Shown one piece after another: positions 198 through 51,232 of a stretch of DNA of 53,842 bases (the first letter of the stretch is position 1; the number at the start of each line of letters is the position of its first letter). Under the pieces are notes generated by a model, which was given only the letters and a program-made list of their open reading frames with translations, had not been told where the DNA came from and ran no database searches. A program made the position numbers and the translations under genes. The DNA is from a virus (lineage: Duplodnaviria > Caudoviricetes), in the IMG/VR virus record IMGVR_UViG_3300020125_000547, positions 1 to 53,842 of that record; one strand, written 5' to 3'.

Positions 198-224
198 CTA
201 GGACGCGCGACGCCGGCGCGATCT
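198..224 (-). promoter_or_regulatory. ECF-like promoter motif copy 1 (AGATC-N15-GTCCTAG)
   Basis: Matches the motif seen 10 times; its TAG is also the stop codon of the upstream gene. Confidence 0.7.
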
Positions 225-527
225 TGCCGTCTTCCCGCGCCGCTCCCTCGCCAGTGCGAGCACCGCTCCCCGGTCGTACGTGCGCCGGCCGGAGCTGTCG
301 CGGGTCGGCTGTAGGCGGCCGTCGTGGATCTTGATCCCGGCCGGTGTGACGCCGAGAAGGGCCGCTGCGTCGCGAACGCTGAGGCCGGGGGCGGCGCAGC
401 GCTCCGTGAGCACACGGCGGGTTATCGACGCTTCTACGCGCCGCGCTATCGCGGCCTCGACCCGGGCACGCAGCCCCGGGCGCTCGGTCTCGAGTTCGTC
501 GATCAGCCGGTCGAGGTCGTCCTTCAT
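198..527 (-). CDS. MerR/excisionase-like helix-turn-helix protein
   Basis: LSVRDAAALLGVTPAGIK...GRLQPTRDSSGRRTYDRGAVLAL is a MerR-type winged-HTH pattern; GAGGAG RBS before ATG 527. Confidence 0.7.
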   Translation of the reverse strand: MKDDLDRLIDELETERPGLRARVEAAIARRVEASITRRVLTERCAAPGLSVRDAAALLGVTPAGIKIHDGRLQPTRDSSGRRTYDRGAVLALARERRGKTARSRRRRAS

Positions 528-1012
528 GGCTCCTCGCCAGGGGCTGTGCCGCACCAACCAATCCTACCGGCGCCGCACGGCCCCGGCGACGCGGACGACA
601 CGAGCTGGATAGCCGGGACGCGAACCCCCGGCACGGTGGTCGCGACATGGAAGGAGTACGCCTCGAGCGAGCGGAGGATGACGTCGCGGGTCTGACGCAA
701 CCGGCCGTGCACGTACACCAAGCAGGCATCGCCGTGTTCGTGTCGGAGCACGCGCCGGATATGCGGTGTGCGCTGCTTCGCCGGCAGCAACCGGACGCCC
801 CCGAGCTCGGTGCCGTGAATAGCGTCACGCGCGACCCGTTGACCGACGGCGGCGTTCAACGCACGCGCAGCGACGAAGTCGCGGATCTCCGCGGCACGCG
901 GGCCGGTCACGCGAAGCGCGGTGAACCCCTTGCCGTCGGCGCGGGTAACCTCGACGCGGGTCCCGGCGAGCGGGCCCTCGGGGGCGTCCCAGGTGCCGAG
1001 TGTGTAGCTCAT
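524..1012 (-). CDS. Hypothetical protein
   Basis: ORF coupled to both neighbours by 4-nt overlaps; normal composition. Confidence 0.6.
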   Translation of the reverse strand: MSYTLGTWDAPEGPLAGTRVEVTRADGKGFTALRVTGPRAAEIRDFVAARALNAAVGQRVARDAIHGTELGGVRLLPAKQRTPHIRRVLRHEHGDACLVYVHGRLRQTRDVILRSLEAYSFHVATTVPGVRVPAIQLVSSASPGPCGAGRIGWCGTAPGEEP

Positions 1013-1200
1013 GCCGGGCCCGGGACGTCCACGTCGTGCTCCTCGACCCCGGAAGCGTAGAACTCGTAATCATCGGTGCCCGGTGCGGCTTTCGCCGCTG
1101 CGGCCGCCGCGCGAGCGTGCTCGGCGTCGGCCAAGGCGCGTATGGTGTGCACGGACCAGACCCGGCCGTTGTTGTGGGTGACGATGAAGACCGCGGCCAC
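1009..1200 (-). CDS. Hypothetical protein
   Basis: 63-aa ORF within a tightly packed minus-strand operon. Confidence 0.6.
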   Translation of the reverse strand: MAAVFIVTHNNGRVWSVHTIRALADAEHARAAAAAAKAAPGTDDYEFYASGVEEHDVDVPGPA

Positions 1201-1203
1201 AGG

Positions 1204-1530
1204 CTACTCGTTCCGCGCGATCGCCGCGTTCGCGAACATCATCGCCTCGTCGAGGTGCGTCATCGCGAGTGCCTGCTCGCGCGACACCGGCGTGTTGCCG
1301 ACGATGATCAGCGCGAGCTCGCGCACCTTGGCGCGAATCAGCTCGTACCGCGCTCGCTGATCACCCTGCGGTGGATGGTACTCGAAGCGCTCGTTGAGGG
1401 CGCCGAGCGTGCGCTCGTCGAGCGGGTACTTCGGCGCGGGCACGGCGGCCGGCGTCGGGATCAAGGGAACGCCCGGGGGCGGGGTCGCGGTGGTCGGTGC
1501 CTGGGCGCTATCGGAAGCTTCGTTTGACAT
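1204..1530 (-). CDS. Acb2/Tad1-like helical-hairpin protein, candidate immune-signal sponge
   Basis: RFEYHPP..Q..RYE.IR...SREQALAMTHLDEAMMFANAAIAR resembles the Tad1 SRE..ALTH.EEA.MW segment. Confidence 0.7.
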   Translation of the reverse strand: MSNEASDSAQAPTTATPPPGVPLIPTPAAVPAPKYPLDERTLGALNERFEYHPPQGDQRARYELIRAKVRELALIIVGNTPVSREQALAMTHLDEAMMFANAAIARNE

Positions 1531-1537
1531 GACGGAT

Positions 1538-1566
1538 ACGATAGCGCGCGACCCGGGCGGCGTCAA
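1538..1566 (-). promoter_or_regulatory. Sigma70-like promoter, probably leaderless
   Basis: TTGACG-N17-TATCGT-N7-ATG on the minus strand. Confidence 0.65.
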
Positions 1567-1608
1567 CGGATCCGTCGCCCGAGCGGGGGGGGGGGATCAA
1601 GCCCGATT

Positions 1609-1881: not shown

Positions 1882-1884
1882 GAT

Positions 1885-2241: not shown

Positions 2242-2292
2242 GACCATGTAGGACGCGCGAGCGCCCGGCCGTCCTACGTGGCATGAAGAATC
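2232..2292. promoter_or_regulatory. Bidirectional palindromic ECF-like promoter (copies 2 and 3)
   Basis: GGACG-N15-GTCCTAC reads on both strands; the inverted repeat extends into both ATG AAG AAT starts. Confidence 0.7.
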
Positions 2293-3308
2293 CCGACGCT
2301 GTCTCTGACCGCACCTTGGAGCTGATCATCATCCGCGCCGCCGCCGACCTGGTGCGCGGCAGCCCCATCATGATCACGATGCACAACCTGCGCACAGCGA
2401 TCGAGGAGTTAGCCCGACGCAACCCGGAGGGCTATCCGCTGGTCGGGGGTGTACCACGCCACCCGCTGCCGTGGCCGGAAGCGCCGGACACCGACGCCCT
2501 GGGGCGTCGTCAGCGGGCGGAGCCCCAGTTCATCCTTTCCCCGGAAGATGAAGTCCGATACCACAAGCACGCAAGCCACGCGGCGGCGTCGATCCCAGGC
2601 CGGCCGGAGACCTGGCCGGTCGACGATCTCGAAAACGCGACCGGCAGAGCGCTCGAGGCCGCTGCCCCCGGCCACCCACGGATCCCGATGCGGGTCCACA
2701 GCCCCTTCGGGTCGCACCCCGAAGGCGATCAGGAGTACCGCGACCGGCTGCGCGCCGTGAGCCGGCACGACATCGGCCGGATCCACTGTCGGGCGCTCGA
2801 TGTCGCGGAGCACACCTTCGACGCCATCGGGCCGAAGGGCGGGTACTCAGCCTCGAGCGCGTCGCGCGCGCTGACGGTCGGGATCATCACCGCGATCTTC
2901 GAGGAGATCGAGCGCCGCCGCACCAGCGCCACCGCTCGCGCGGAGCACACGTACCGACCCGGGGACGAGGTCGAAGTCGACGCGTCCGCACACGGCTGGT
3001 GTCCGGGCACGGTCAAGCACGCGAACGACTGGGGCGTCGTGGTGTACTGGTCGTACGGCGACGGCAAGGTCACCGGCTCGACGCCCGTGCCGTGGGACGA
3101 GGTGCGCGGCCGCGTGCGCCGACGCGGTGAGTATCAGGTCGGCGACGAGGTCGAGGTGAAGACCGCCGGCCCTGGGAGCCGCGGGGGCGCGGTATGGGAA
3201 GCGGCTGCGGTTCAGCGCGTCGAGGCCGACAGGATCGACGTCGAGTTCAAGTACCGCAAGGCCGGTGGCTGGTTCTCGCGCAATCTCGTGCGGCGGCCGA
3301 CCCGCTAG
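2283..3308 (+). CDS. Protein with two C-terminal Tudor/Agenet-like (SH3-fold) repeats
   Basis: YRPGDEVEV...GWCPGTV and YQVGDEVEV...WEAAAV...IDVEF. Confidence 0.6.
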   Translation: MKNPDAVSDRTLELIIIRAAADLVRGSPIMITMHNLRTAIEELARRNPEGYPLVGGVPRHPLPWPEAPDTDALGRRQRAEPQFILSPEDEVRYHKHASHAAASIPGRPETWPVDDLENATGRALEAAAPGHPRIPMRVHSPFGSHPEGDQEYRDRLRAVSRHDIGRIHCRALDVAEHTFDAIGPKGGYSASSASRALTVGIITAIFEEIERRRTSATARAEHTYRPGDEVEVDASAHGWCPGTVKHANDWGVVVYWSYGDGKVTGSTPVPWDEVRGRVRRRGEYQVGDEVEVKTAGPGSRGGAVWEAAAVQRVEADRIDVEFKYRKAGGWFSRNLVRRPTR

Positions 3309-3683
3309 CTGGCGGCCGCGACCCACAGCCCCGACGGCCCCAGGTACGCGAGCTCGGCGCGGGTGATCGGCTCGCCGTCGCACACGAAGGTCCCCTCGAG
3401 CCGGTGGTACACCGCGCGCTCGGCGTTCGCGGGCCGGCTAACGCCGCCGCGCCATCGGCCCACCGCGAACGCGTGTACGTTCCGAGCGCCCGAGGCCGCG
3501 CGGCGCTGACCGCCGGCGCGCACCAACGAAGCGGACTTCGGCGAGCACGATCTCGTCGGCGTGCGCGACGACGTGCGTCCGCTGCATCACCGAGTACCAC
3601 ACGCCGGCGCGCAGGAGGTTGCGGTACACCCAGACCTCGCGGTCCGAATCGATCGACCGGGCCTGATAGCTGTGGATGGTCAT
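3305..3683 (-). pseudogene. Conserved phage protein split by a 1-nt frameshift near 3527 (pseudogene or sequence error)
   Basis: N-half (VWVYRNLL...VVAHADEIVLAEVRF) and C-half (RNVHAFAVG) of one recognisable family lie in different frames. Confidence 0.6.
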
Positions 3684-3688
3684 GCGGA

Positions 3689-3714
3689 CTAGGACGCGCG
3701 GCGCTGACCGATCC
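3689..3714 (-). promoter_or_regulatory. ECF-like promoter motif copy 4 (GGATC-N14-GTCCTAG)
   Basis: 5 nt before ATG 3683; its TAG is also the upstream stop. Confidence 0.65.
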
Positions 3715-4024
3715 CGACCGCGCGGAGCACCCGCCGCCACCACGGCGCCCGGTCCGCCGCGACGCCGACGCGGATCCGGCACAGGATCGCCTCCGCCCGC
3801 GCGTCTTCCTCGGCGGCGCGCTGCGGCGCCACGCAGAGCATCAGGTCGCGGAGCGCCTGCTCGGCGAGGCCGTCGGCGTCGGGCCCGCGCCGGCACCGGA
3901 CCTCGAGGTAGCGGTCGACGTACGCCGCGAGGTCGAGCGCGGCGCTGTGCCGGCCATCCGGGTTCTGCGCAACGAGCGCGTGGCGGCGCTGCAACGAGCG
4001 GAAGACCTGGTCGGGGGTCCTCAC
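3689..4024 (-). CDS. Hypothetical protein
   Basis: GTGA overlap with the upstream stop. Confidence 0.55.
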   Translation of the reverse strand: MRTPDQVFRSLQRRHALVAQNPDGRHSAALDLAAYVDRYLEVRCRRGPDADGLAEQALRDLMLCVAPQRAAEEDARAEAILCRIRVGVAADRAPWWRRVLRAVGIGQRRAS

Positions 4025-4917
4025 GCGTCCCCCTTGCCGGCCACCACGACGGCCTCCTGCATCCGCCCCTCGAGCACGGTCTGACACCGCGCGCAGCCGG
4101 GCAGGTGTTCGCGGAACTCCTGCGCGAGCCGTCCCGCGGGGCCGCCGGTTAACTGTCCGTCGAAGAACCAGTCGAGGTGGTCGCACGGTGTTGGTCGCGG
4201 GGCCGCCGCGCGCCGTCGCCATGCCTCGATCCGGGCCGCCGACATCCGCTGCTCCTCCGCGATCTGATACTCGAAAACGGCCTGCGGGAAGAACTCGCTG
4301 AGCATCATCCAGCGGCAGGGTAAGTCCGAGGCACCCCAGCCGCCGCTGTCCAGGTAGGCGGGGTTGATGCCATCGAGCCCACGGTGCTTCGCGCTCGACC
4401 ACCGCTCGGGCGCCGCGGCTGTGTTCCCGTGCGGCCAGACGACCTCGGCTGCGAGAATCGGCCCGTACTTGCCCTCGAGCTCCTCGGCGAGGTCCGGATC
4501 GCACAGCCGCTGCGTCGGGCGGATGAAGACGAGCGGGCAGCAGATCTGCCCCTTCACGAAGCTCGGCGCGGTGCGCCAGTGCGCCTCGGCGGCCGGGATC
4601 CCGGCCATGTACTCGACGAGCGTCGTCCAGTAGCCCGCAGCGAGGTCGGCGTCGCCGATCGAGTGTCCGCGACCGCCGGGCGGCCCGCTCCGCCAGTAGC
4701 CGGCGTCCGGTGGTGACCCGTCGGGGTTACGCAGAGCGTCGAACGTCGTGCGGTGCACGAGGCGTAGCTCGGGCACGATGTCGATCGGCCTGTGCTCGCC
4801 GCCGACGTACGTGATGATCGTCAGCGCCACGAACGCGGTCCCGTCGCGCGGCGCCGGGGCGTCGCCTCCAGTGCCGCCACCCATCACAGGACGCCAGTTG
4901 AATCGGTCGACCGTCAT
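4021..4917 (-). CDS. Hypothetical protein with C-terminal zf-HC2 (ZAS anti-sigma-type) zinc motif
   Basis: C-terminus CDHLDWFFDGQL...FREHLPGCARC fits HxxxCxxC preceded by DGxL. Confidence 0.6.
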   Translation of the reverse strand: MTVDRFNWRPVMGGGTGGDAPAPRDGTAFVALTIITYVGGEHRPIDIVPELRLVHRTTFDALRNPDGSPPDAGYWRSGPPGGRGHSIGDADLAAGYWTTLVEYMAGIPAAEAHWRTAPSFVKGQICCPLVFIRPTQRLCDPDLAEELEGKYGPILAAEVVWPHGNTAAAPERWSSAKHRGLDGINPAYLDSGGWGASDLPCRWMMLSEFFPQAVFEYQIAEEQRMSAARIEAWRRRAAAPRPTPCDHLDWFFDGQLTGGPAGRLAQEFREHLPGCARCQTVLEGRMQEAVVVAGKGDA

Positions 4918-5195: not shown

Positions 5196-5518
5196 GTTCC
5201 CTCCAGGATTGTAACCATCTGTTCGATCTGCCGTCGATCTTCCTCAGCGACCGCCTCGCGCCAGCCCGGCTCGCCGGGTGCCGCGCTTCGCATCGCGAAC
5301 GACGCCGAGGTCCGCGCGACGTCGCGAACGAGCTCGAGGGGGCTGAGATCGGCCTCCGGTCGTGCCTCGGCGTCCCGGGTGGCTTCGGTCACCGCGTGCG
5401 CCAGCACCCAGACCAGGTCGCGCGGCGGCACCGGCAGCGCCGCGAGCTCGCGCGGGTCCAGCGGCCGGTCGATCGCGAAGTCGGCGCCCCAGCGCACGAG
5501 GTCGGCAGGGGTGATCAC
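5192..5518 (-). CDS. Hypothetical protein
   Basis: GTGA-coupled ORF (VITPADLVRW...). Confidence 0.55.
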   Translation of the reverse strand: MITPADLVRWGADFAIDRPLDPRELAALPVPPRDLVWVLAHAVTEATRDAEARPEADLSPLELVRDVARTSASFAMRSAAPGEPGWREAVAEEDRRQIEQMVTILEGT

Positions 5519-7543: not shown

Positions 7544-7830
7544 GACGACCCGCGGCCAGGACGCGCGATCGCCCGCGGGATCTCGCGGACGCGCGGCACG
7601 CGCACCGGCCACACGACCCGCGCGAGCGCCGCGAAGCTCCGGCCGAGCGCGACGCCGGCGCGGACGAGCAGGTACAACACGCCCACGGCGACCGCGAGCG
7701 GCCACAGCAGCCCGGCCAGGAAAACAAGCGCCGGCGCCGGGTCGTCGTCGGCCAGCCGATCGGACAGCTCCACACCCGTAAGAACGCCGATGATGAGACC
7801 GATGCAGCAGTAGAGAACGATACCCGGTAT
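7540..7830 (-). CDS. Membrane protein, probable non-canonical ATA start
   Basis: Hydrophobic in-frame extension (IPGIVLYCCIGLIIGVLTG) reaches ATA 5 nt after promoter copy 5. Confidence 0.5.
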   Translation of the reverse strand: MPGIVLYCCIGLIIGVLTGVELSDRLADDDPAPALVFLAGLLWPLAVAVGVLYLLVRAGVALGRSFAALARVVWPVRVPRVREIPRAIARPGRGSS

Positions 7831-7835: not shown

Positions 7836-7862
7836 CTAGGACGCGCGATGCCTAGGGATTCC
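7836..7862 (-). promoter_or_regulatory. ECF-like promoter motif copy 5 (GGAAT-N15-GTCCTAG)
   Basis: Heads the long leftward operon. Confidence 0.65.
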
Positions 7863-7960
7863 TACGCGCACGGCTCGCTCGAATAACAATGCCCGACGAG
7901 CGCCTGCGCTGCGGCTCGTGGCGGCTCGCTCAATAAAAACGCGCCAGATAATCAAGAAAA

Positions 7961-8296
7961 ATGCCGGATGGGCGTCCGTTCCGGCATCCTGTTCCGGCAT
8001 GCCTTCGGGTTAAGCTCTTGACAACGTTCATGTTTCTGGTTCTGTTCCTGCATGTTCCGGCATTCCGGCACGTCTTCCATAGTCCCCTGGGTGGTGTGTG
8101 TCATTTTTCGTGTCCGGCATTATTTAATCCCGGATATTCCCTTTTTATTATCTAGGTATATGTACTATTACACACACCAGATCTACTTCTCTGATCGATC
8201 GAAATAGGAACACTAGGAACAGTAGGAACCGGGCAACGATTTTAATGGGTTGGCGTGTTCCTGCATGGCGCTCTGTTCCGGGTTGATGCCGGAACA
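7961..8296. repeat. AT-rich region with direct and inverted TGTTCC(G/T)(G/A) repeats; origin or packaging-site candidate
   Basis: About 12 copies in both orientations, plus an inverted repeat 8092-8104/8167-8179 around an AT-rich core. Confidence 0.65.
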
Positions 8297-8376
8297 GCCT
8301 GCGCCGGGCCACTAACCACGCTCGATTTGCGAGAAAACCCGGCGGAATTGATCGCAATAGCAACGTATGGCAACAT

Positions 8377-11226: not shown

Positions 11227-12600
11227 ATGACGACTTTCAAGGCGTTTCCAGCCGGCCGGGTTGAGGCCGCGCGCGACGAGCTCGCGAAGGCGCAGCGCCG
11301 CCTCGAGCGCGCCGCGGTGCGCGCCGGCCAGGACGCGCCGGCCGCTCCGGCCGCTCCGGTGCTCACTGTGGTGCGCGAGTACGTGCTGAGCCGCTGCGCC
11401 AGCTACAGCGGCTGCGGCCGGGAGTGGGAGGGCGTCGGCCCGTGCCCCAGCGGGCGGACGTGCGGCCCGGTCAAGCGCCGCGCGCTGGTCGACCTCGAGC
11501 TCCAGGCGCCGCCGGCGCGGCTCGCGGGCTGGGACTTCCTCGCGGTCGTCGAGCCGCTGACCGGCGGCAATCTGATCCGGCAGGTCCCCGGCGCCGAGGT
11601 GGCCGAGGGCGAGCTCGCCGCGTGGCGTATGGGCCCGATCGCGTGCGACCACTGCAAGGCCGCGCGGCACCGCAAGGAGACGTTCATCCTGCGCGGCGAG
11701 GGTGTGGAGGTGCCGGCCGGCATGGTCCGGGCCCGGGTCTACAAGCAGGTCGGCCGCCAGTGCTTGGCTGCGTTCCTCGGCGGCCGGAGCGCAGCCGACA
11801 TCGTCGCCCGGTTGGGTTGGGACGCGATCGTGCGCGGCGCGGGCGGCGAGGAGGAGGAGGAGGGCTTCGGTGGCGGGCGCGGCGCCCTCGACCTGTACGA
11901 CCCGGCCGAGTTCCTGGCCTGGTGCTGCGCGGTCGCGCGCCTCGACGGGTTCGTGACGCGGAAGATGGCGTCGGAGGCGAGCGACGCGGGCGGCGGCCGC
12001 CGCGCCACCTCGAGCGAGGTCGAGTGGATGCTCGGCCCGGCGCCGACCGGCGATAGCCGGCCCGACTGGGTGGCTGCACGCGAGCGCCTCGCGCCCACCG
12101 AAGGTGACCAGACCCGCGCCGCGGCGACCCTGGCCTGGGCGCGCGCGCTGCCCGGTCGCGGCGACTACGAGCAGAGTCTCCGGCTGGTCGCCTCGCAGGA
12201 AGCCTGCCAGCCGAAGCACGCCGGGATCCTCGCGAGCGCGGTGCCGGCGTACGAGCGTGAGCTCGGCTTCGCGGTGAAGCGCGCGGCGCGCGGCCCAGGC
12301 GAGCACTACGGCGCGGTCGGGGAGCGCTACGAGCTCACGCTCACGGTCGAGAAGGTGGTGCCGATCGAGGGCGGGCAGTGGGGCCCGGCGGTGATCGCGA
12401 CCATGCGCGACGCGGCCGGCCGGTGCTTCATATGGCGGACCACCTCGAGCCCGGGCGCGGTCGGTACGACCCTCGCCCTGAAGGGCACCGTGAAGAAGCA
12501 CAGCGAGTTCCGCGGCGAGAAGCAGACCGAACTGACCCGGTGCCGGGTGGAGCGTCCGAAGGCGACGGAGGCAGGATCCGCGCCGTCGTGCGCGTCCTAG
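11227..12600 (+). CDS. Conserved phage protein with CxxC motifs and C-terminal OB-fold-like domain
   Basis: CDHC...R.RKET, QVGRQCL..FLG, HYGAVGER...LKGTVKKHSEFRGEKQTELTRC. Confidence 0.7.
   Translation: MTTFKAFPAGRVEAARDELAKAQRRLERAAVRAGQDAPAAPAAPVLTVVREYVLSRCASYSGCGREWEGVGPCPSGRTCGPVKRRALVDLELQAPPARLAGWDFLAVVEPLTGGNLIRQVPGAEVAEGELAAWRMGPIACDHCKAARHRKETFILRGEGVEVPAGMVRARVYKQVGRQCLAAFLGGRSAADIVARLGWDAIVRGAGGEEEEEGFGGGRGALDLYDPAEFLAWCCAVARLDGFVTRKMASEASDAGGGRRATSSEVEWMLGPAPTGDSRPDWVAARERLAPTEGDQTRAAATLAWARALPGRGDYEQSLRLVASQEACQPKHAGILASAVPAYERELGFAVKRAARGPGEHYGAVGERYELTLTVEKVVPIEGGQWGPAVIATMRDAAGRCFIWRTTSSPGAVGTTLALKGTVKKHSEFRGEKQTELTRCRVERPKATEAGSAPSCAS
12574..12600 (+). promoter_or_regulatory. 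ECF-like promoter motif copy 6 (GGATC-N15-GTCCTAG)
   Basis: 6 nt before the sspB ATG; its TAG is also the upstream stop. Confidence 0.75.
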
Positions 12601-12606
12601 GACCTC

Positions 12607-13113
12607 ATGAAGACCTGGATCACGTGGGAGCGCGAGGGCGCGCCAGCTGCGCGCGTCGAACTACCGGCCGAGGTCGCCGAGGAGATCGAGCGTCACGCGG
12701 CGGAGATCGGCGCGCCCGGCGCCGTTGACGTCGTCGCGTCGCTGGTGCGCAGCGTGGCCAGCGAGCTCCGCCAGCGGCCGCCGTTCGACGGCGAGGCGGC
12801 GGCTGCGACGCTGCGAGCGCTGCTCGACCAGGGCGCGGTGATGCTCACGCTCCGGCCGCAAGCGCACGGCGTCGACGTCCCCGAGGCGCTCCGCGACAGC
12901 CCGATCGTGACGCTGCGGTTCGGCTACGGCCTGACCCCGCCGATCCTCGGCCTGGAGGTCGACGCGGACGGGGTGCGTGGAACGCTGACCTTCGGCGTAA
13001 TGCCGTACTATTGCGTGATTCCCTGGCGCGCCGTGCTGATCGCGGCGCTCGAGCGTCCGACCGGGCCCGCCGCGCCGCCGGCATCACCGCGACCGAAGCT
13101 CAGGCTCGTGTAG
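12607..13113 (+). CDS. sspB: SspB-like ClpXP adaptor
   Basis: GVDVPEAL...TLRFGY..PPI.GLEVDADGVRGTLTFG..PYYCVIPWRAV; ClpX-binding-like tail RPKLRLV. Confidence 0.8.
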   Translation: MKTWITWEREGAPAARVELPAEVAEEIERHAAEIGAPGAVDVVASLVRSVASELRQRPPFDGEAAAATLRALLDQGAVMLTLRPQAHGVDVPEALRDSPIVTLRFGYGLTPPILGLEVDADGVRGTLTFGVMPYYCVIPWRAVLIAALERPTGPAAPPASPRPKLRLV

Positions 13114-13139
13114 GATCCTGATGCGGTGGCGCGTCCTAG
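13113..13139 (+). promoter_or_regulatory. ECF-like promoter motif copy 7 (GGATC-N15-GTCCTAG)
   Basis: 7 nt before ATG 13147. Confidence 0.75.
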
Positions 13140-15201: not shown

Positions 15202-15500
15202 AGATCGGGATTGCTGGCTGTGGCGGGTGCCCGTTCCTCTACACCGGCAGCGAGGTGATCGAGCGCCGGTGTCGCGCGGTCGACCGGAGCCTGCCGGTCA
15301 ACACCCGGTCGCCCTACGGCGGCGAGCCGACGCCCGACTGGTGCCCGGCCCGCGAAGGCGTCGAGGTCCGGCTCGTAGCGCCGCCCGCGCGCAAGGTGAG
15401 CGCGCTCGCGAAGATGGCTGCGGCGCAGCCGACACGAACGCCGGGCGACCCCGATCCCTACGCGGGCGCGCTCGACGACTGGGGCTGGGACCTGGCCTAG
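15198..15500 (+). CDS. Small Cys-rich protein
   Basis: CGGCPF...C...PDWCP pattern common in phage small proteins. Confidence 0.55.
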   Translation: MKIGIAGCGGCPFLYTGSEVIERRCRAVDRSLPVNTRSPYGGEPTPDWCPAREGVEVRLVAPPARKVSALAKMAAAQPTRTPGDPDPYAGALDDWGWDLA

Positions 15501-17338
15501 CCCGCCCGCGCCGAGAATAGCGACACCCAGCCGACCTTCTTCGCGCGGCGCTCGCTGAGGCACTGGCTCATGTAGTCGATGCGGTCGTCGCGCGAGCCGT
15601 GTGGGAACGCCGCGAACTCGTCGACGAAAGTCTCCTTGCTGTCGCCCGGGGGCTTCACCAGCCACGCCGCGCCGTCGAGCAGGTAGATCAGGCCGGCCTC
15701 GAGCATAGGCTCCATGAACTCGGACCGCTGCGCCTTGTCGCCCTTGCCGGTCGGCTCGTAGTCCTTGACGACCGCGATCACGGCCTCGCCGGCTGCGTTC
15801 TTCAAGCCGTTGCCGATCGCCTCGCGAAGGTCCTGGATCATGCCCTCGCCGAGCGCCTTGTGCTCGATCCGGACGACGATCTTCGTCGTCCAGCCGGTGA
15901 GGTCGCTCGCGCGCGCGACCCCGCGCTTCATATGCTTCAAGGCGTCGTGCCAGCCGCACGGCCCCGGCGTCAGGTCCTCGAGCACGAACGCGCGCTCGGC
16001 CTTGCCGACGACGATCCCGAGCCCGAGCGCGCTCGCGGTCTTCTCGGTCGAGCCGCCGGTCGGGTCGATCGAGACCTCGACCCAATCGACGAGCAGCCGG
16101 CCGGCCTCGTCGCACTCGAGCACCCGCGCCGGCTCGCGCTCGCGCTCGGGCGAGATCCCGCGCGGCCGCATCCGCGGCGTGCCGTCGGCGGGGCCCCACG
16201 GGCTGTTGCCGTTGCCGCGAATCTGGAAGTATTTCCACAGGTTGAGCTTGAACTGGTTGCCCTCCTTGACGCCGGGCTCCTGCTCCATCTGCCCGGCGTA
16301 GCCGTGTGCGCGCAGCGTCGCCAGGCGCTCGGCGAGGTACTCGGGCGTGTAGCGGGCGTGCAGGACCTCGCCCTCCTCCTGGCGCCAGTCCTTCCACCCG
16401 AACGCGTTCGGCAGCCCGGCGACGCCGAGCTCGCACTGTCGACACTGGCACTTCGGCCGGCGCTTGAACCCCATCGGGATCCGCAGGTGGAACCAGCCGA
16501 GGTTGACGACGTGCTCGGAGAAGTCGCCCGGCCGCGCGCGCTGCATGATCGCGGTGCGGATGTTCCAGCGCGCGTCCGGTTGGCGCGAACTGATGTCGCC
16601 GTCGAACTTTTCGATCGCCTTGGCGATCTCTTCCGTCGTGTCATCCATCGCGTGCGCGTCGTCGAGGCAGGTCCAGTCGGAATCGAGCCCGATGACGTCG
16701 GAGCCCCACGCCTTTGCGCGCCGCGCGCCACCGGCGGTGTTGCCGATGCTCTGCAGCGCGTCCTGGTCGTCGCGGATGCGCCAGGCGCCGCCCTGGCTCG
16801 CGGGCCGACAGAGCACGAACAGGCGCTGGTACCAGTCGCCGGTGACGACGTCGCGGAACAGGCGCGCCGAGTCGAGCACGACGCCAGCGTTCGCCGAGAG
16901 GTACAGGATCCGAAGGAACGGCCAGCGAATCCAAGCCCATGCGTTGGCGAGGGTGAGCAGGATCGTCTTCAACGACCTGGGCGGGCAGTTGATCAGCAGG
17001 TTGGCTGCACGCGCGATCGCCGCCGGGTTGACCCGCTTGTGCATCGCGTCCTCGAGCTGCCCCTGGATGTGGAGGCAGATTGCGTCGAGATGCGGGCCCC
17101 ACTCGAGCGGCGTCGCTGCGAGCGCGGTTCGCTCCCACTGCTGGCGCGCGTAGTACGCGAAGCTCCGCTTGCAGCGCTCGGCGACGACGTGGTCGAGCGT
17201 GATCGGGACGTACTGGCGCTCCTCAGGCGGCGGAAGTGTCGGGCGCGGCGGCGCGGCGGCGTTCCGGCAGAGCGGGCAGCCGCCGGTGAGGCGCGCGAGC
17301 GCGTGGCCGCACGCGGCTGCCGGCGCGGCAGCGGTCAC
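15497..17338 (-). CDS. terL: Terminase large subunit
   Basis: LLINCPPRSLKT (Walker A), CLDDAH (Walker B), IMQR, SIDP and DDRIDYMSQ nuclease motifs. Confidence 0.92.
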   Translation of the reverse strand: MTAAAPAAACGHALARLTGGCPLCRNAAAPPRPTLPPPEERQYVPITLDHVVAERCKRSFAYYARQQWERTALAATPLEWGPHLDAICLHIQGQLEDAMHKRVNPAAIARAANLLINCPPRSLKTILLTLANAWAWIRWPFLRILYLSANAGVVLDSARLFRDVVTGDWYQRLFVLCRPASQGGAWRIRDDQDALQSIGNTAGGARRAKAWGSDVIGLDSDWTCLDDAHAMDDTTEEIAKAIEKFDGDISSRQPDARWNIRTAIMQRARPGDFSEHVVNLGWFHLRIPMGFKRRPKCQCRQCELGVAGLPNAFGWKDWRQEEGEVLHARYTPEYLAERLATLRAHGYAGQMEQEPGVKEGNQFKLNLWKYFQIRGNGNSPWGPADGTPRMRPRGISPEREREPARVLECDEAGRLLVDWVEVSIDPTGGSTEKTASALGLGIVVGKAERAFVLEDLTPGPCGWHDALKHMKRGVARASDLTGWTTKIVVRIEHKALGEGMIQDLREAIGNGLKNAAGEAVIAVVKDYEPTGKGDKAQRSEFMEPMLEAGLIYLLDGAAWLVKPPGDSKETFVDEFAAFPHGSRDDRIDYMSQCLSERRAKKVGWVSLFSARAG

Positions 17339-18804: not shown

Positions 18805-18831
18805 CTAGGACGTCCGGTGCACGGACGATCC
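18805..18831 (-). promoter_or_regulatory. ECF-like promoter motif copy 8 (GGATC-N15-GTCCTAG)
   Basis: 5 nt before the groES ATG, no RBS. Confidence 0.75.
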
Positions 18832-18882: not shown

Positions 18883-19479
18883 ATGTCGAACACCAAACGC
18901 AATGGTACAGACCAGTTGGAGAACCTGGAGGCGCGGCTACACGAGCTCGGCGCCATGGCGCAGGCGCTCACCGAGCAGGTACGCCTCGCGCGCGGGACGC
19001 GCGAGATCACCCCACCACCGCCCGCCGCACCGGCCGAGCTCCCACTCGCCGATCGCCTGGCGGCGGTCCTTCGCGCCACACCGTCGTCAATCGAGGATCT
19101 GGTGGCCGCGCTTCACGTCCCCGCCGGGCGCATTGCGAAGGAGATGAAGGCGCTACGCGCCGCGGGTCTCGGCCGCAAGCTCTGGAACGCCGGCACCGAC
19201 GTTGCGCCGAAGTGGTTCTTGCCGCCGGGTCCGGACGCCACCCCCGAGGTGTTCGCCGCCGCAGTGCTGGCGCTGATCCGCCTACAGCCGCACTCGACTG
19301 GCGAGCTCCAGCAGGCTACCGGGACCATGGGGTCCAAGCGCGTGTGGCACGCGCTGGTGAAGCTCAATGACGCCAAGGGCTCGCGCATCGTGCGGTACGG
19401 CGACCCGCGACGGCCGCGGTGGTTCTGGCTCCCGGAGGGGATGGACCTGAGCAGGTTCGCGCCGCGCAGCGGCCGGTGA
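18883..19479 (+). CDS. Protein with two winged-HTH-like repeats
   Basis: Two helical segments each ending in P(K/R)WF; GGAGAGG RBS. Confidence 0.55.
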   Translation: MSNTKRNGTDQLENLEARLHELGAMAQALTEQVRLARGTREITPPPPAAPAELPLADRLAAVLRATPSSIEDLVAALHVPAGRIAKEMKALRAAGLGRKLWNAGTDVAPKWFLPPGPDATPEVFAAAVLALIRLQPHSTGELQQATGTMGSKRVWHALVKLNDAKGSRIVRYGDPRRPRWFWLPEGMDLSRFAPRSGR

Positions 19480-20442: not shown

Positions 20443-20800
20443 CCCGCTCGCCATCGACTGCCAAGCATGCGCGGCCGGTCCCGGTGTGCTGTGCCCGACC
20501 GCGACCGGACTGCACTGGGCGCGTGCGAAGGCGGCGGGGATGACCCCGGCTGAGATGCTGGCCTGGCGGCCTGCGGAAAGGCGGCCTGCGGAGGGGCCCG
20601 TCGCACCCCCGTCGTCGCCCGCCGCCGGGCCGGCCGTCGTCGGCCGGCTGCCGAACGCCGACGACCTCGGGATCACGCTTGCCGCGCTCGCGGCTGCGTG
20701 CGACCTCGCCGAGCAGCACGGCGCGCCGACGGCCGAGGTCGCGCGGTTGCGCGCCGTCGGCTCGTCGGTCGCAAGAACCGACGCTCATCGGGCGTCCTAG
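20432..20800 (+). CDS. Zinc-finger protein
   Basis: CQACAAGPGVLC...H..R motif. Confidence 0.55.
   Translation: MPRDPLAIDCQACAAGPGVLCPTATGLHWARAKAAGMTPAEMLAWRPAERRPAEGPVAPPSSPAAGPAVVGRLPNADDLGITLAALAAACDLAEQHGAPTAEVARLRAVGSSVARTDAHRAS
20774..20800 (+). promoter_or_regulatory. ECF-like promoter motif copy 9 (AGAAC-N15-GTCCTAG)
   Basis: 8 nt before ATG 20809; its TAG is also the upstream stop. Confidence 0.65.
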
Positions 20801-21720: not shown

Positions 21721-21911
21721 TCGGGTCACTGATCCGACGCCTGCGCGGCGCGCGCCCGCGGTGCGGCTGGTCGTTCGCCAGCGGCCACCCGCAGCTGAGC
21801 GTGTGCCCGAACTGCCGGCGGCCTGGGGCCGAGCATCCGCCGGCCGCGCCCGGCGCCCCGACCGTTCCTGGGGTTGACTGGTTGACGCCGATGCTGCGGG
21901 AGATCCGATGA
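21717..21911 (+). CDS. Small Cys-containing protein
   Basis: Overlaps both neighbours. Confidence 0.45.
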   Translation: MIGSLIRRLRGARPRCGWSFASGHPQLSVCPNCRRPGAEHPPAAPGAPTVPGVDWLTPMLREIR

Positions 21912-22168
21912 CCTTCCTCGACGCGCTGCGCGCCTCGCGAGCATGCAACCGGCCGATCAGGCAAGCCTCGTGGTGCCTGGGGCACCGGATCCAGTGGCAC
22001 GCGAAGGACGGCCGGTGGGTGTTCGCGAACCGTTACGAGCCGGACCTCCTCCTCGCGACCGCCGTCACGCGCGATGACTGGACGCACCGGCAGCTCGACC
22101 TGAGCCGGATGCAGGGCTGCCTGACGCCCGAGACGATGCTCGCCGAGGATTGGGAGGTTGTACCGTGA
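21908..22168 (+). CDS. Tad2/DUF2829-like protein, candidate anti-defence sponge
   Basis: MTFLDALRA...IRQASW...MLAEDWEVV, the N- and C-terminal signature of this family. Confidence 0.65.
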   Translation: MTFLDALRASRACNRPIRQASWCLGHRIQWHAKDGRWVFANRYEPDLLLATAVTRDDWTHRQLDLSRMQGCLTPETMLAEDWEVVP

Positions 22169-28424: not shown

Positions 28425-28453
28425 TTGCCCCAAGCTGATTCTATTGCTATATT
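28425..28453 (+). promoter_or_regulatory. Sigma70-like promoter, probably leaderless
   Basis: TTGCCC-N17-TATATT-N7-ATG(28461). Confidence 0.6.
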
Positions 28454-45128: not shown

Positions 45129-45341
45129 TCATCTCCTTGGGGTGAGCCACCACGGCGAACACACGATCGTGTCGCCGTCGTCGAGATTAGCCGGGGGCCG
45201 GTGTACGCCGAACACGGCCGTGGGATCGTAGGTACGCGTGGGGACGGCGATCTGCGCTGAGCGGCCTGCGAACACGACCCCGAATCGCCGCTCCGGGCGA
45301 AGTGGGAGCACGCGCCGGAGGCGAGCAGGCAAGATCAGCAC
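45129..45341 (-). CDS. Hypothetical protein
   Basis: GGAG RBS; fills the gap between neighbours. Confidence 0.45.
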   Translation of the reverse strand: MLILPARLRRVLPLRPERRFGVVFAGRSAQIAVPTRTYDPTAVFGVHRPPANLDDGDTIVCSPWWLTPRR

Positions 45342-45637
45342 AGGGTGATCTCCGGGTCGGCCTCGGCGCTCGTGCGGGTGTGCTTGTGGGGCACGGGCAG
45401 CCCGCGCCGCGCCAGCCAACTGACCCCGGCGTCATCGAGATACCAGACATCGCCGATCGGCGCGATCAGGCCGATGCGCTGCATCTCCGCTAGCAGCGGG
45501 CGCGTTTCGTCCGGGGAGGCGTCGGCGATGCGGGCGCTGAGACCGCGGACGGTCAGGCCGCCGCGGCGGAGCACCACGAGCGCCGTCTGGGCGCGGGGGT
45601 CGAGATCGGTCGGGCGGGGGTCGGCAAGAGCGTCCAT
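45335..45637 (-). CDS. Winged-HTH-like protein
   Basis: LTVRGLSARI..SPDETRPLLAEMQRIGLI....WYL..AG; TACCCT just upstream. Confidence 0.55.
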   Translation of the reverse strand: MDALADPRPTDLDPRAQTALVVLRRGGLTVRGLSARIADASPDETRPLLAEMQRIGLIAPIGDVWYLDDAGVSWLARRGLPVPHKHTRTSAEADPEITLC

Positions 45638-45749: not shown

Positions 45750-45784
45750 CGCACCGGCACGGTACTTGCTATACTGCGTCCGTG
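45750..45784 (+). promoter_or_regulatory. Conserved 35-bp candidate late promoter, copy B
   Basis: CGCACCGGCACGGT-N3-TGCTATACT-N3-TCCGTG. Confidence 0.65.
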
Positions 45785-47792: not shown

Positions 47793-47801
47793 ACCCGCGC
47801 C

Positions 47802-48281: not shown

Positions 48282-48319
48282 CGCTTGTCGCCGCCGAACG
48301 CCCCACAGGAAACCACCCC

Positions 48320-50185
48320 ATGAAGAAAATCGCGACCGCCATCGCCATCCTGCTTCTGACCGCGAGCACCGCGCTCAGCAACCCGGTCATCCGGCACACG
48401 AAGATCTGCACGCAGCCGGCCGGGTCGAACCCCAGCCTGATCGGCTGCCCCGACTGGAACGCGGACCACGTCATCGACTCGGCGGCGCTCGCCGCGACGA
48501 TGGACATCCAGCTCGTCACGGCGGACCCGAACGGCACGAAGACGGGCCCCGGCATCGCGATCGACACCACGAACAACCAGCTGTGGATCAATACCGGCGG
48601 CACGACCTGGACGCCGCTCGCCCGCAGCGACGGCGGCACGGCCGGCGCTCGCAAGGTGTTCCTGCTGCGCACGGACAGCAACGGCATGGGGGCCGGCACC
48701 GAGACGGATCAGGACGATCCGACCGACCAGGTGAACACGCCGAACACGAACGTGAACCTGGTCAAGATCTACACGACCAACTTCAGCGAGCCTGTCACCC
48801 CGATCAACATGGGTACCGGGTCGCTGCGTGTGCAGGGCTTCAACCCGGCGCACGGCCCCGAGCTCATGATCGGCTACGAGCTCGGCCGCCTTATCAACGG
48901 CCCGGGATCGGTGCCCGACAGCGCACACAAGCTGTGGATCGATCAGATGTCGATCCACTCGTCGACGCTCGCGAACTGGATGCAGGGGTCGAGCGCCGGC
49001 ACGTTGTCGCCGCTCCTCGGCGGCGGCAACCTCGACGCCGACAGCAACGCGCGCGGTCTGGCGACGGTCGCCGCAAGCAACGGCGCGGCCGCGGCGATGT
49101 TCACGATGCTCGGCACGAACGATGCCTCGAACAGCACCGACGCCGGCAACGTCGGGACGAACGTCGCCGCCTTCGAGACGAGGCAGCGCAGCGTTTACGG
49201 TTCGCAGTTGCTTTTCGTCTGGACGATCATCCAAAGCACGATAACCAATCCGCCGTTTCCCAACGCGTCCACGGCACGCGCGAACCAGATCGCGGCGCTG
49301 CAGGCCGCGACCGGCACCGCGCTGGTCTACGCCGAAGACATCCCGACGATCGACGATTTCGCACACTTCACTTCAATCGGCGAGCAGGTCCTCGGACAAC
49401 GGCAAGCCTTCGCCTACGTGCGGCTCGCCGGACTGCGCCAGCGCATCGTGACCGCGCCGACCGTCGTCGGGTTCAGCCCGGCGACGTACAACGGAAGCGC
49501 CCACGGTCTGTCCGGCTTCACGGGTGCGTCCGGCAGCACCATCCGCGCATGGCCGTGGCAGGGTAGCGCGAACAACGATCTGACGATCATCCCGGTGTTC
49601 AGCGGTGCCATCGGCGCCGGCACCACGATCCCGACACCCTCGGGCTACACCGCCGCCGCGACGCAGATCGCCGATCTGGACAACGCGGGCGTCGGCAACC
49701 ACCTGGCGCTGTTCACGAAGGCTGTGACGCAGGCCGACCTCGACGCCAACGGAACGAGCACGGGCGGCCCGGGTTTCCCGGCGTCGATCACGGTGACGCC
49801 GGGCGGCGCGCAGTTCGTCGCGAAGCCTTTCGCCGTGCGCACCTCGTCCGGCGTGCCGGCCTTCGACGGCGCGGCGACCGCCTTCACGCATACGACGGTC
49901 GACACGTCCGCGGTGACGGCCGGCGGTGTGACCACGACGGCCGCCAACCGTACCATCTTCATCCTGGTGACGGGCTGGTCCGGAGTCGGCCAATCATTCA
50001 CGGTGGCGAACAGCAACCTGACGAACCTAACGCAGGTGTATGGCGCGCAGTATCCGAGCTCCTCCGGCAATTACCTGTATGTCGGGCTGTGGACAGGAAC
50101 GCTTGCTGGCGCCGGCGCGAGCGGCAATAGCACGGTGACACCGGCGATCTCCGGCGGATCGCAGGGCTACACGTGGGCGATGTAG
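48320..50185 (+). CDS. SGNH/sialate O-acetylesterase-like protein with signal-peptide-like N-terminus
   Basis: MKKIATAIAILLLTASTALS; VFLLRTDSN, LGTND, DFAHFTSIG..LGQR. Confidence 0.7.
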   Translation: MKKIATAIAILLLTASTALSNPVIRHTKICTQPAGSNPSLIGCPDWNADHVIDSAALAATMDIQLVTADPNGTKTGPGIAIDTTNNQLWINTGGTTWTPLARSDGGTAGARKVFLLRTDSNGMGAGTETDQDDPTDQVNTPNTNVNLVKIYTTNFSEPVTPINMGTGSLRVQGFNPAHGPELMIGYELGRLINGPGSVPDSAHKLWIDQMSIHSSTLANWMQGSSAGTLSPLLGGGNLDADSNARGLATVAASNGAAAAMFTMLGTNDASNSTDAGNVGTNVAAFETRQRSVYGSQLLFVWTIIQSTITNPPFPNASTARANQIAALQAATGTALVYAEDIPTIDDFAHFTSIGEQVLGQRQAFAYVRLAGLRQRIVTAPTVVGFSPATYNGSAHGLSGFTGASGSTIRAWPWQGSANNDLTIIPVFSGAIGAGTTIPTPSGYTAAATQIADLDNAGVGNHLALFTKAVTQADLDANGTSTGGPGFPASITVTPGGAQFVAKPFAVRTSSGVPAFDGAATAFTHTTVDTSAVTAGGVTTTAANRTIFILVTGWSGVGQSFTVANSNLTNLTQVYGAQYPSSSGNYLYVGLWTGTLAGAGASGNSTVTPAISGGSQGYTWAM

Positions 50186-50197
50186 CCGAAGGCACTG

Positions 50198-51232
50198 ATG
50201 CCAGGGTTCGACGATAGTTTCGACAGCTCGGCCTTCGAGGCGGACGAGACCGCGCAGGCGGGCGAGGAGCTGTCGAACTCGGTGCCGGATCCGACCCCCG
50301 CCGCGCGTCCTACAGCGGGTACCGCCGTGTTGTCCGAGGTTACCGCATACACACACCTGATCTACGGACTCGTCGATCCGCGGGATCACCTCATCCACTA
50401 CGTGGGGCGATCGGCGAACGGGCTACACAGGCCACATCAGCACAAGACGAAACATGTTTCCGCAGCCATGCGCGATTGGCAGAGCGAACTGACCGCACGT
50501 GGTTTGATGCAGGAGATCGTTGTTCTCGAGGTCGTGCCAACCGAGAGAGCGTACAGTCCGGCGGTCAACGTGTTTCTACCGTGGTGGCTCGACGGTCGGA
50601 ACACACGCGCGCTGAGTGCCGCGGAGGGTTGGTGGATCGCCTACGGGCGCGCGAGTGGGTGGCCGCTGTTGAACATCGCGGACGGCGCCAGTGGCGGACA
50701 CTACCACAAGGCCAGACCCGAGACTGTTGAGCGACGGCGTGCAAAACTGATCGGCAAGCGGCGTAGTGCTGAGTATCGTCGTCGGCAGAGCGAGCGTTTC
50801 AAAGGACGCCCCCAGCCACAACTCAGAACAAAAGAGGTGCATGAAAAGTCGGCAGCCAGCAGACGCGGCCTGAAGCGAACACCAGCACAGCGTGCAAAAA
50901 TGTCCGTAGCTCAGTCCCAACGCCACCGTGATGCGGTACCTCCGTGGTTACCGCTGGTACTCGGCGCGGCTCCCGATCGTGTCGTTGGCGAGGTAGCGGG
51001 CAAGTCCGTACCTACGATCTGCGCTTATCGAAACACCTTGGGTATTCCGACATTTCGCACCGGCAAGTGCTACAAAGAATCGTTGCCGGTTTGGTTTCCT
51101 CTGGTCGCCGGAACAGTGACAGATCGCGTGGTCGGATCGTTAGTTGGCCTATCTGAGTTTACGATAAGCAAACATCGTAACAGCCTGGGCATTCCGGCAT
51201 TCCGTGTAACCAGCCGCAGCGAAGGACGCTGA
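50198..51232 (+). CDS. GIY-YIG homing endonuclease fused to a duplicated N-terminus of the downstream gene
   Basis: IYGLVDPRD...YVG, E.WWI, LLNIADG, NUMOD-like basic repeats, two C-terminal DRVVG...R..LGIP repeats. Confidence 0.85.
   Translation: MPGFDDSFDSSAFEADETAQAGEELSNSVPDPTPAARPTAGTAVLSEVTAYTHLIYGLVDPRDHLIHYVGRSANGLHRPHQHKTKHVSAAMRDWQSELTARGLMQEIVVLEVVPTERAYSPAVNVFLPWWLDGRNTRALSAAEGWWIAYGRASGWPLLNIADGASGGHYHKARPETVERRRAKLIGKRRSAEYRRRQSERFKGRPQPQLRTKEVHEKSAASRRGLKRTPAQRAKMSVAQSQRHRDAVPPWLPLVLGAAPDRVVGEVAGKSVPTICAYRNTLGIPTFRTGKCYKESLPVWFPLVAGTVTDRVVGSLVGLSEFTISKHRNSLGIPAFRVTSRSEGR
50287..50313 (+). promoter_or_regulatory. ECF-like promoter motif copy 10 (GGATC-N15-GTCCTAC), internal to the ORF
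   Basis: 13 nt before in-frame GTG 50327, which precedes the nuclease domain. Confidence 0.55.

Follow-up and report, generated by a model that had tools for sequence, protein, structure and literature searches.

What reads a set of ten near-identical DNA sites that stand, nearly all of them, a few nucleotides in front of start codons in a phage of the class Caudoviricetes? The sites follow the pattern (A)RGAWC-N15-CGTCCTAS, with N14 in one case, and lie in IMG/VR record IMGVR_UViG_3300020125_000547. This is one linear viral contig of 53,842 bp with 70% G+C, and the window analyzed here spans all of it. A first-pass annotation had read the sites as promoters of the extracytoplasmic function (ECF) sigma type, which drive mostly leaderless, host-like stress genes from a single alternative sigma factor. 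We give about an even chance to the reading that the phage has in these ten copies a bipartite promoter class of its own, which makes leaderless mRNAs and is read with an alternative ECF-like sigma factor. Promoter function, start sites, the kind of sigma factor, and the use of only one are inferred from the anatomy of the sequence.

A bipartite motif in ten oriented copies

The copies are named here by the first coordinate of the right box (Table 1). In all ten, GTCCTA is preceded by C, and a box of the type A/G-G/A-G-A-W/C-C lies 15 nt upstream (14 nt at 3689). The ten copies of the first-pass annotation were recovered with exact coordinates, and so was the N15 spacer with its single N14. 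The right block is longer than had been noted, as GCGCGTCCTAG (11 nt) is exact in six of the ten copies, and the box continues as TAGG in five. When the ten copies are aligned, the right box is invariant and the left box is looser, with the core GATC in six copies, GGAC in two, GAAC in one, and GAAT in one. A GCGCG flank is found on one side of the motif only.

GTCCTAS occurs 12 times in the window against 5.4 ± 2.5 expected, and none of 100 shuffles reached 12. Two of the 12 occurrences are the two strands of a single palindromic CCTAGG site (12594-12603), and the one at 23532 (minus strand) is without an upstream box. The strict pattern TAGGAC-N14/15-GWTCY was seen seven times against 0.01 expected, a count reached by 0 of 100 shuffles; the copies outside this pattern are 7836 and both copies of the twin at 2248-2277, with the left boxes GGAAT and GGAC. 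With a two-block weight matrix, the ten copies scored 18.5-26.9 bits and the next-best site 17.6 bits, while the best scores of 30 Markov shuffles averaged 16.1 and the largest was 20.3; the matrix was derived from the ten sites themselves, which makes this comparison partly circular. The 17.6-bit site lies at 7562 (minus strand), 33 nt before GTG 7522, and is a possible weak eleventh copy.

Table 1 Coordinates of the motif copies (scores from the two-block weight matrix) and of other features on the contig
Feature	Position	Strand	Details
Motif copy AAGATC-N15-GTCCTAG	198-224	-	26.3 bits; GTG 192; TAG = stop of gene 198-527
Twin motif copies, palindrome GTAGGAC-N16-GTCCTAC	2248-2277	both	21.9 + 18.5 bits
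Motif copy, N14 spacer	3689-3714	-	23.4 bits; ATG 3683; TAG = stop of gene 3689-4024
Motif copy	7836-7862	-	24.2 bits; heads leftward operon 7830 to 3689
Motif copy	12574-12600	+	26.9 bits; TAG = stop of gene 11227-12600; ATG 12607
Motif copy	13113-13139	+	26.9 bits; ATG 13147 of weakly supported glycosyltransferase gene
Motif copy	18805-18831	-	24.4 bits; ATG 18799; heads leftward operon from GroES to large terminase
Motif copy	20774-20800	+	23.7 bits; ATG 20809; GGAG within interval
Motif copy	50287-50313	+	22.3 bits; GTG 50327 opens homing-endonuclease-like ORF 50327-51232
Canonical promoter TTGCCC-17-TATATT, TG before -10	28425-28453	+	7 nt before ATG 28461
Canonical -10 TATACT, preceded by TGC	45770-45775	+	6 nt before GTG 45782
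TACCCT hexamer, canonical class	5 nt before ATG 44067
TACCCT hexamer, canonical class	4 nt before ATG 45637	-
298-aa protein, C-terminal ZAS-type zinc motif	4021-4917 (motif 4081-4137)	-	motif in last ~55 residues
198-aa protein, probable two winged-helix domains	18883-19479	+	DprA_WH E 9.6e-4; ArsR/SmtB E 0.0055, far below cut-off; Atlas leads <0.9
Large terminase	15500-17338	-	26% identity to terminases of Aeromonas phages and Myxococcus phage Mx4
Acb2/Tad1 hairpin domain	1204-1464	-	E 3e-19; counter-defence candidate
Weak Tad2-like match	21908-22168	+	E 0.0015; counter-defence candidate

Distance to the start codon

All ten copies are oriented toward a downstream open reading frame (ORF). 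Counted from the S of GTCCTAS, the start codon is 5 nt away at 198 (GTG), 2271, 3689, and 18805, 6 nt at 2248 and 12594, 7 nt at 13133, and 8 nt at 20794. An ATG or GTG is thus found 5-8 nt after the box in eight of the ten copies. The exceptions are 7836, where the codon at 5 nt is ATA, and 50307, where GTG follows after 13 nt; the nine copies reported earlier at this distance are reached only when the ATA is counted. For a random oriented site, a called start at 5-8 nt has p = 0.0029, and the probability of at least eight in ten is 2e-19, a test in which four of the starts had been set with the motif in view. It had also been noted that in four cases the gene before the motif terminates in the TAG of the right box. 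This holds at 198, 3689, and 12600, which end confidently coding genes, and at 20800, where the upstream ORF is weakly coding. Four of the ten motif genes begin with (A/G)TGAAGA.

When the first base of the start codon is taken as +1, GTCCTA falls at -12 to -7, which is the place of a -10 hexamer. On the same count, the proposed promoters would have CGTCCTA(S) at about -13 to -6 and RGAWC at about -32 to -28. Transcription would begin at the ATG or GTG or 1-3 nt before it, which would give leaderless or nearly leaderless mRNAs; the exception would be the endonuclease cassette with the copy at 50287-50313, where the leader would have ~8 nt. The enzyme that reads the class would be the bacterial multi-subunit polymerase with an alternative ECF-like sigma factor.

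2248/2271: The twin consists of two copies in opposite directions, and the -10-like box of each direction doubles as the -35-like box of the other. On the minus strand, ATG 2241 follows after 6 nt, and on the plus strand, ATG 2283 after 5 nt. There are 41 nt between these divergent starts and neither has a Shine-Dalgarno sequence. Any promoter of the two genes must lie within the palindrome. The twin is nested in a longer imperfect palindrome (2232-2292) with outer arms at 2198-2209 and 2309-2320. The imperfect palindrome of ~120 bp (2198-2320) takes in the first codons (Met-Lys-Asn) of both divergent genes, and the arrangement suggests an inverted duplication of a promoter together with a gene start.

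Motif copies head three of the five divergent junctions of the contig (2248/2271, 7836, and 18805). The class would drive three divergent or leftward operons from their heads, and in the accessory half it would also restart transcription at several internal points. Among its targets would be the genes from GroES to the large terminase, the operon with Acb2/Tad1, and the genes of the SspB-like adaptor, the glycosyltransferase, and the homing endonuclease.

Elsewhere on the contig, four start codons are preceded at 4-7 nt by a canonical sigma-70-type -10 hexamer, where 0.7 such cases were expected (Table 1). Thus, leaderless expression appears to be in use in this phage, and the CGTCCTA box stands where these promoters have their -10 hexamer. 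The structural genes, by contrast, have clear GGAGG-type ribosome sites. The sites before ATG 28461 and GTG 45782 both contain TTGCTATAYT, 6-7 nt from the start codons. A TCGACG-18-TACAAT site at 5208-5237 is followed by a ribosome site. The motif itself does not fit the housekeeping factor, whose promoters have a TANNNT hexamer ~7 nt ahead of the start and a TTGACA-like -35 element: a hexamer built from the TA of the box ends in T in one of the ten copies, and the sigma-70 scan finds other places. The motif copies have no AT-rich tracts (UP element or CarD-type site) upstream. The consensus sequences of sigma-32, sigma-54, sigma-28, and SigB/F-type factors are dissimilar to the motif and were rejected.

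Genes behind the motif

198: The truncated first gene (1-192, minus strand) has a DnaJ-type CxxCxGxG zinc-finger motif, read by eye. It shows 47% identity over 30 residues to a region of phage Mx4.

3689: The L5 gp82-like gene (3305-3683, minus strand) has an apparent frameshift near 3523. Its 53 N-terminal codons (ATG 3683 to 3524) code well, and the part that matches Pfam is in another frame.

7836: The ATA 5 nt past the box is in frame with an ORF whose product is a membrane protein, predicted to have two membrane helices. The first of these helices is encoded upstream of GTG 7773, which is the first start codon of canonical type. The ATA may serve as an unusual start codon, or it may be due to a mutation or to an error of sequencing.

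12594: The gene 12607-13113 is SspB-like (Pfam E 0.017), and homologues at 63-35% identity carry PF04386. The protein and its homologues all end in a similar basic-hydrophobic tail, which is conserved and reminiscent of the ClpX-binding tail of SspB. The adaptor may redirect the ClpXP of the host.

13133: The left box of this copy is overlapped by TAG 13111-13113, the stop codon of the SspB-like gene.

18805: The GroES gene is matched with E 2.5e-22. The Cpn10 domain starts at residue 5, and this fixes the start codon.

20794: This copy (20774-20800) may head a long rightward operon that reaches the structural genes.

50307: The ORF behind this copy matches the homing-endonuclease family phrog_314 (E 1.5e-6). 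On either side of this ORF and its motif stands a copy of the first ~85 bp of gene 51232, the two being ~85% identical. The region (50195-51320) is lower in G+C (61-63%), is set among tail genes, and looks like an inserted mobile cassette. As the motif and the ORF both lie between the duplicates, the motif travels with the cassette. We count it in favor of promoters that the mobile gene brings its own motif copy directly before its ORF.

The targets had been called host-like stress genes. This description suits GroES and, loosely, the SspB-like adaptor and the DnaJ-type zinc-finger protein. It does not suit the others, which are DUF2158, the L5 gp82-like gene, the membrane protein, the weak glycosyltransferase, a 303-aa protein of no named family, and the homing endonuclease. 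The targets are a mixed accessory set together with operon heads, for which the label of a stress regulon is too strong.

Similarity to ECF promoters

The first-pass annotation compared the motif to ECF promoters. This is borne out in part: the boxes are similar to ECF-type -35 and -10 elements, and orientation and geometry suit a promoter of leaderless mRNAs. The spacer is 1-3 bp short of the published examples. The motif shares with ECF promoters a short bipartite signal with rigid spacing, an invariant CGT(C), and a -10 element ~9-13 nt before the inferred start. ECF promoters initiate ~8-9 nt past the CGTN core; with the start codon at +1, the CGTC of the motif would stand at -13 to -10. 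CGTC, present in all ten copies, is a form of the ECF -10 core CGT(C/T/A). It is the -10 core of rhizobial ECF promoters, and for RpoE1/2/4 of S. meliloti the part of the source on these promoters gives GGAAY-N16/17-CGTY (PMC6180224). For the RpoE-ChrR group, the consensus quoted in PMC5507510 is TGATCC-N16-CGTA, with the -35 core GATCC, to which the GGATC(C/G) form of the left box corresponds. Sigma-E promoters of S. coelicolor have a spacer of 16-17 bp (PMC6767563). Promoters of DdvS of M. xanthus are given as GTAA-N16-CGT in the section of PMC6061681 on this factor, where the ECF spacer range is quoted as 14-17 bp. The motif differs from ECF promoters in its shorter spacer, in ATC mostly in place of AAC, in the longer -10 block (GCGCGTCCTAG), in inferred transcripts that would be leaderless, and in the lack of an adjoining sigma gene. 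The boxes thus resemble ECF elements, and any assignment to a known ECF group would be tentative.

The conservation is asymmetric, with an invariant right box and a loose left box. This fits sigma domains 2 and 4 better than a symmetric dimer.

A candidate ZAS-type protein in a motif-headed operon

Beside the motif, the contig encodes a protein that suggests a link to ECF signaling. The gene 4021-4917 lies in an operon headed by a motif copy, and its protein ends in C-x25-H-x3-C-x2-C, a motif of the zinc anti-sigma (ZAS) type that none of the other called proteins contains (75 in all). The ZAS pattern consists of H-x3-C-x2-C and one more C or H, placed 22-26 residues ahead of it. With the last 74 residues, the best match in the PDB was the anti-sigma factor DdvA of M. 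xanthus (8rlz, E 0.0013), with the four zinc ligands aligned. The zinc ligands of DdvA, according to the structural part of PMC11506125, are C6, H28, C32, and C35 (CHCC). In a homologue of 61% identity the ZAS motif is kept, with the distance from C to H four residues shorter; a homologue of 41% identity is without the tail. The order of the ligands (C...H-x3-C-x2-C), aligned over 41-45 residues, is what the tail has in common with the N-terminal domain of DdvA. In DdvA, the ZAS domain is N-terminal in a membrane protein, whereas in the phage protein it is C-terminal in a soluble protein with a 240-aa N-terminal part without known relation.

The anti-sigma assignment is tentative. PF13490 (zf-HC2) was matched with E 6.3e-4 for the genome and 16.7 bits, below the cut-off of 22.2, and an NCBIfam search of the protein gave no match at E ≤ 1. 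ZAS domains are bundles of three or four helices that bind sigma domains 2 and 4; the structure model of the protein has three C-terminal helices (244-255, 261-271, and 276-293), but with a mean predicted local distance difference test score of 35 it is unusable.

DdvA sequesters the ECF sigma factor DdvS, and DdvS switches on an island of CBASS (cyclic-oligonucleotide-based antiphage signaling) and type III-B CRISPR systems against phage Mx4, as described in the passages on this pair in PMC11506125. The protein 4021-4917 is a candidate partner of an ECF sigma factor and may be a phage mimic of an anti-sigma factor. The tail, together with the G+C content and the distantly related terminase of Mx4, suggests that the phage may deal with an ECF sigma factor of its host and that this host may be a myxobacterium. 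The protein could bind the sigma factor of the class and shut the class off as a feedback, and/or block a sigma-dependent defence. A further proposal, which we consider doubtful, is that a phage with an anti-sigma half and ten ECF-type promoters rides a host sigma factor of the DdvS kind: infection would release the sigma, which would be used for leaderless accessory and counter-defence genes, and its recapture by the ZAS-tailed protein would then silence both the early class and the sigma-dependent defence islands of the host.

Observations against the promoter reading and rival explanations

Several observations weigh against ECF-type promoters of leaderless genes, and some of them would fit other explanations of the motif.

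Spacer and -35 box: In the notation GGATC-N14-CGTC, the spacer is N14 in seven copies, N13 at 3689, and equivalent at the twin, against N16-17. This is 2-3 bp below the examples of S. coelicolor, S. meliloti, and RpoE-ChrR. In a common notation, GGAT-N15-CGT is 1 bp shorter than GTAA-N16-CGT of DdvS, and the motif stands at or below the low end of the ECF range quoted in PMC6061681. The canonical -35 core GAAC is present in one of the ten copies only, and six carry GATC (RpoE-ChrR-type GATCC).

Ribosome sites: The first-pass annotation had stated that the motif genes usually lack a ribosome binding site, which stands only in part. A Shine-Dalgarno-like match of 4-5 nt precedes 4/10 motif genes and 33/64 other called genes and is therefore not clearly rarer at motif genes. 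At the motif genes, the match is formed by TAGG(T/A)G following the box. At 13133 and 20794, the interval from box to ATG holds a usable AGGTG or AGGAG, which suggests that the genes there are also translated from read-through transcripts.

The Shine-Dalgarno-like matches, and the TAGG with which half of the boxes continue, would fit a different explanation: the right box may be a start-associated sequence of the mRNA that acts in translation or processing, like the start-associated sequences (SAS) and extended SAS (ESAS), and the left box their upstream inverted-repeat part. We consider this improbable. The layout is strikingly similar to the SAS of Cluster K mycobacteriophages, for which PMC3203893, in its part on these repeats, describes 13-bp asymmetric repeats with an AGGAG core, 3-7 bp before starts and with a preference for ATG. 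They occur in the non-structural half only, mostly in one orientation and sometimes with the upstream stop codon inside; about half have an imperfect inverted repeat just upstream, and this 2011 paper leaves their function open (PMC3203893). In common with SAS/ESAS, the motif has about ten or more oriented repeats near starts, the non-structural region, stop codons inside some copies, and a partly symmetric upstream element. SAS/ESAS carry a Shine-Dalgarno core and are thought to be translational, whereas the invariant box of the motif is without this core and has just one short box upstream of it, at a fixed spacing. The distance of 5-8 nt from the start codon is comparable to that of SAS, but only one of the ten copies contains AGGAG. 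The operon heads at 2248/2271, 18805, and 7836 would moreover leave no room or candidate for an upstream promoter. Folds, too, are inconsistent across the copies, with folding z values from -4.2 to +0.7, and a hairpin or RNA structure was rejected as a common feature.

Symmetry: The shared dyad GYAGGA...TCCTAS would also suit a DNA-binding dimer. The sites may be binding sites of a phage DNA-binding regulator, either an operator/"stoperator" repressor or an activator, with the dyad GYAGGA-N18-TCCTAS. In our view this is unlikely, although it stands ahead of the other rival explanations. In reverse complement, the left box comes close to the right one (by eye at 4-7 of 7 positions, and perfectly at the twin), and in five of the ten copies the lowest-energy fold pairs the AGGA end with the TCCT end. 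At 12594 and 18805, the dyad reaches into the spacer (z -2.5 and -4.2), but a hairpin or an extension of the dyad is absent in four to five of the ten copies (z -0.3 to +0.7). The half-sites are 24 bp apart centre to centre, which is off the helical repeat, and the loose left half and the one-sided GCGCG flank are not those of a symmetric site. A regulator would also leave the fixed distance to the start and the lack of room at the twin unexplained.

A candidate regulator would be the protein 18883-19479, which has weak winged-helix signals and abuts the copy at GroES, divergent from it. The other candidate is the small protein 45338-45637, which looks like a winged-helix protein by eye only. 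Its gene (45335-45637, minus strand) has no family match and is divergent from the tail-region gene 45782 (plus strand), and both lie behind canonical -10 hexamers. This pair could be a repressor-like switch.

The stoperators of L5-type Cluster A phages, as described in the relevant part of PMC9283540, are likewise numerous and asymmetric, stand in short gaps between genes, and follow the direction of transcription, as the motif does in 10/10 copies, and their repressor is a monomer with two DNA-binding domains. They are contiguous 13-mers that are not locked to starts and belong to temperate phages with a known repressor (PMC9283540, same part), whereas the motif is bipartite with a variable spacer. 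Among the called proteins, no integrase was found and no match to a repressor family at the Pfam and PHROG thresholds used, and no motif copy lies inside the 24-kb structural operon. The motif thus departs from a Cluster A stoperator.

Sigma gene: A six-frame search with PF04542, PF08281, PF04545, and TIGR02937 returned nothing at E ≤ 10, and its controls matched. This agrees with the first-pass annotation, which had recognized no sigma gene. The gene of an ECF sigma factor (and of its anti-sigma factor) usually stands behind a promoter of the class that the factor reads, but no cognate sigma gene adjoins any motif copy, and a phmmer search of the PDB with three small proteins as sigma candidates gave nothing. 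That the sigma factor might be encoded elsewhere on the phage had been left open. As the window is the whole contig, with an estimated completeness of 89%, room remains only in the ~6 kb (~11%) of the genome that are missing; genes are cut at both ends of the contig. Without a visible phage sigma, the factor would be a host sigma, possibly activated by infection, or would come from the missing ~11%.

The sites may instead be promoters for an unseen factor of the phage itself, namely a divergent sigma, a small RNA polymerase in the missing ~6 kb, or an injected factor, which we rate somewhat below a regulator. Phage-private classes that are read by phage factors are known from the T4 middle promoters and the SPO1 gp28 promoters. 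The linear, incomplete contig leaves space for such a factor, the exact 11-nt block in six of the ten copies and the unusual spacer would suit a private one, and the search for relatives with the motif gave none. On the other side, sigma-dependent polymerases, and not single-subunit ones, typically use bipartite signals with a variable spacer. The ZAS anti-sigma tail would make best sense with a sigma factor of the host. Phage sigmas are often too divergent for Pfam, according to the part of PMC7826278 on this question, and this qualifies the six-frame result, which is otherwise a point against a phage sigma. Thermus phage P23-45, in the account of PMC10770324 available for its polymerases, hides two polymerases that are recognizable only by DxDxD, each with a promoter motif. 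Near-identical signals mark one expression class there as here, but the factors of P23-45 are phage-encoded and known (PMC10770324, same account), whereas none is visible here in 89% of the genome. A scan for DxDxD gave three hits, which is about the chance number by our own estimate; one of them, DFDPD in the portal extension, lies in a disordered-looking proline-rich stretch, and a hidden polymerase was rejected.

Relatives: No motif-bearing relative turned up among the loci compared, which is the last point against a promoter class. Of 255 viral or metagenomic loci, none had more than one motif copy; these were 95 viral loci from a pattern scan and, from the gene 11227 family at ≤55% identity, 80 viral loci and as many metagenomic ones. 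The closest relatives, with 82-64% identity in the gene 11227 product and 73-63% in the SspB-like protein, are on contigs outside this set. The 95 pattern hits on viral contigs are chance matches, with one match each and no second two-box copy in a relaxed rescan. Phage Mx4 was also scanned and has no motif copy. It has 70.1% G+C, like this phage, and the similarity is limited to the terminase (26%) and the zinc-finger stretch of 30 aa.

No close relative was detected by a 10-kb megablast against the phage collection (0 hits) or with the large terminase against viral contigs of IMG/VR (0 hits). Scans of genome contigs with the gene 11227 family and with GroES found nothing. The C-termini of gene 11227 homologues are not conserved and hence are uninformative on the motif in relatives. 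Two distant relatives, linked to this phage only through the gene 11227 family, have repeats of their own, with 13 copies of a ~15-nt TTGACG-containing unit within 2 kb in locus L178 (1470-3340) and six 42-bp tandem repeats in locus L176 (14980-15200).

Gene content of the contig

Gene calling gave 75 genes; the codon-usage model behind it had ten long ORFs as its training set. Few of the 75 proteins could be named by Pfam, PHROGs, or tblastn, and neither an Rfam family nor a tRNA was found in the window. The structural block is of the myovirus type and lies on the plus strand at ~22-50 kb. It includes a portal with a long extension, a MuF-like protein, DUF2213, a cement protein, the major capsid protein, Dit-like and Pam3 gp18-like baseplate parts, and a SASA esterase. 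In the portal gene (23612-27397, plus strand), residues 77-448 are the portal domain, which is fused to an extension of ~800 residues without family match that looks acidic, proline-rich, and low in complexity.

The accessory half (0-21 kb) encodes GroES, the Acb2/Tad1 hairpin protein, DUF2158, the L5 gp82-like protein, and the weakly supported glycosyltransferase. An intergenic stretch (7950-8300) in an AT-richer region of 650 bp contains an 11-nt repeat (TGTTCCGGCAT type) that occurs at least eight times over the two strands, along with three TAGGAAC units in tandem and other inverted repeats. The GGAAC core of these units resembles the left box of the motif. The stretch looks like an origin or a regulator array.

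Significance

If the sites are operators, they would be an ordinary regulatory repeat of an orphan phage. By their layout, they also offer a second example of start-associated repeats, one that is free of a Shine-Dalgarno core. If the promoter reading is true, the phage would build a whole expression class on a stress or alarm sigma factor of its host without encoding one and would express it as leaderless mRNAs; word searches of the literature, which cannot show absence, turned up no description of such a class. In Myxococcus, ECF signaling controls a CBASS/CRISPR defence island, as reported in the part of PMC11506125 cited above. The motif and the ZAS-like tail together would offer a testable link between ECF signaling and the control of phage genes or counter-defence.

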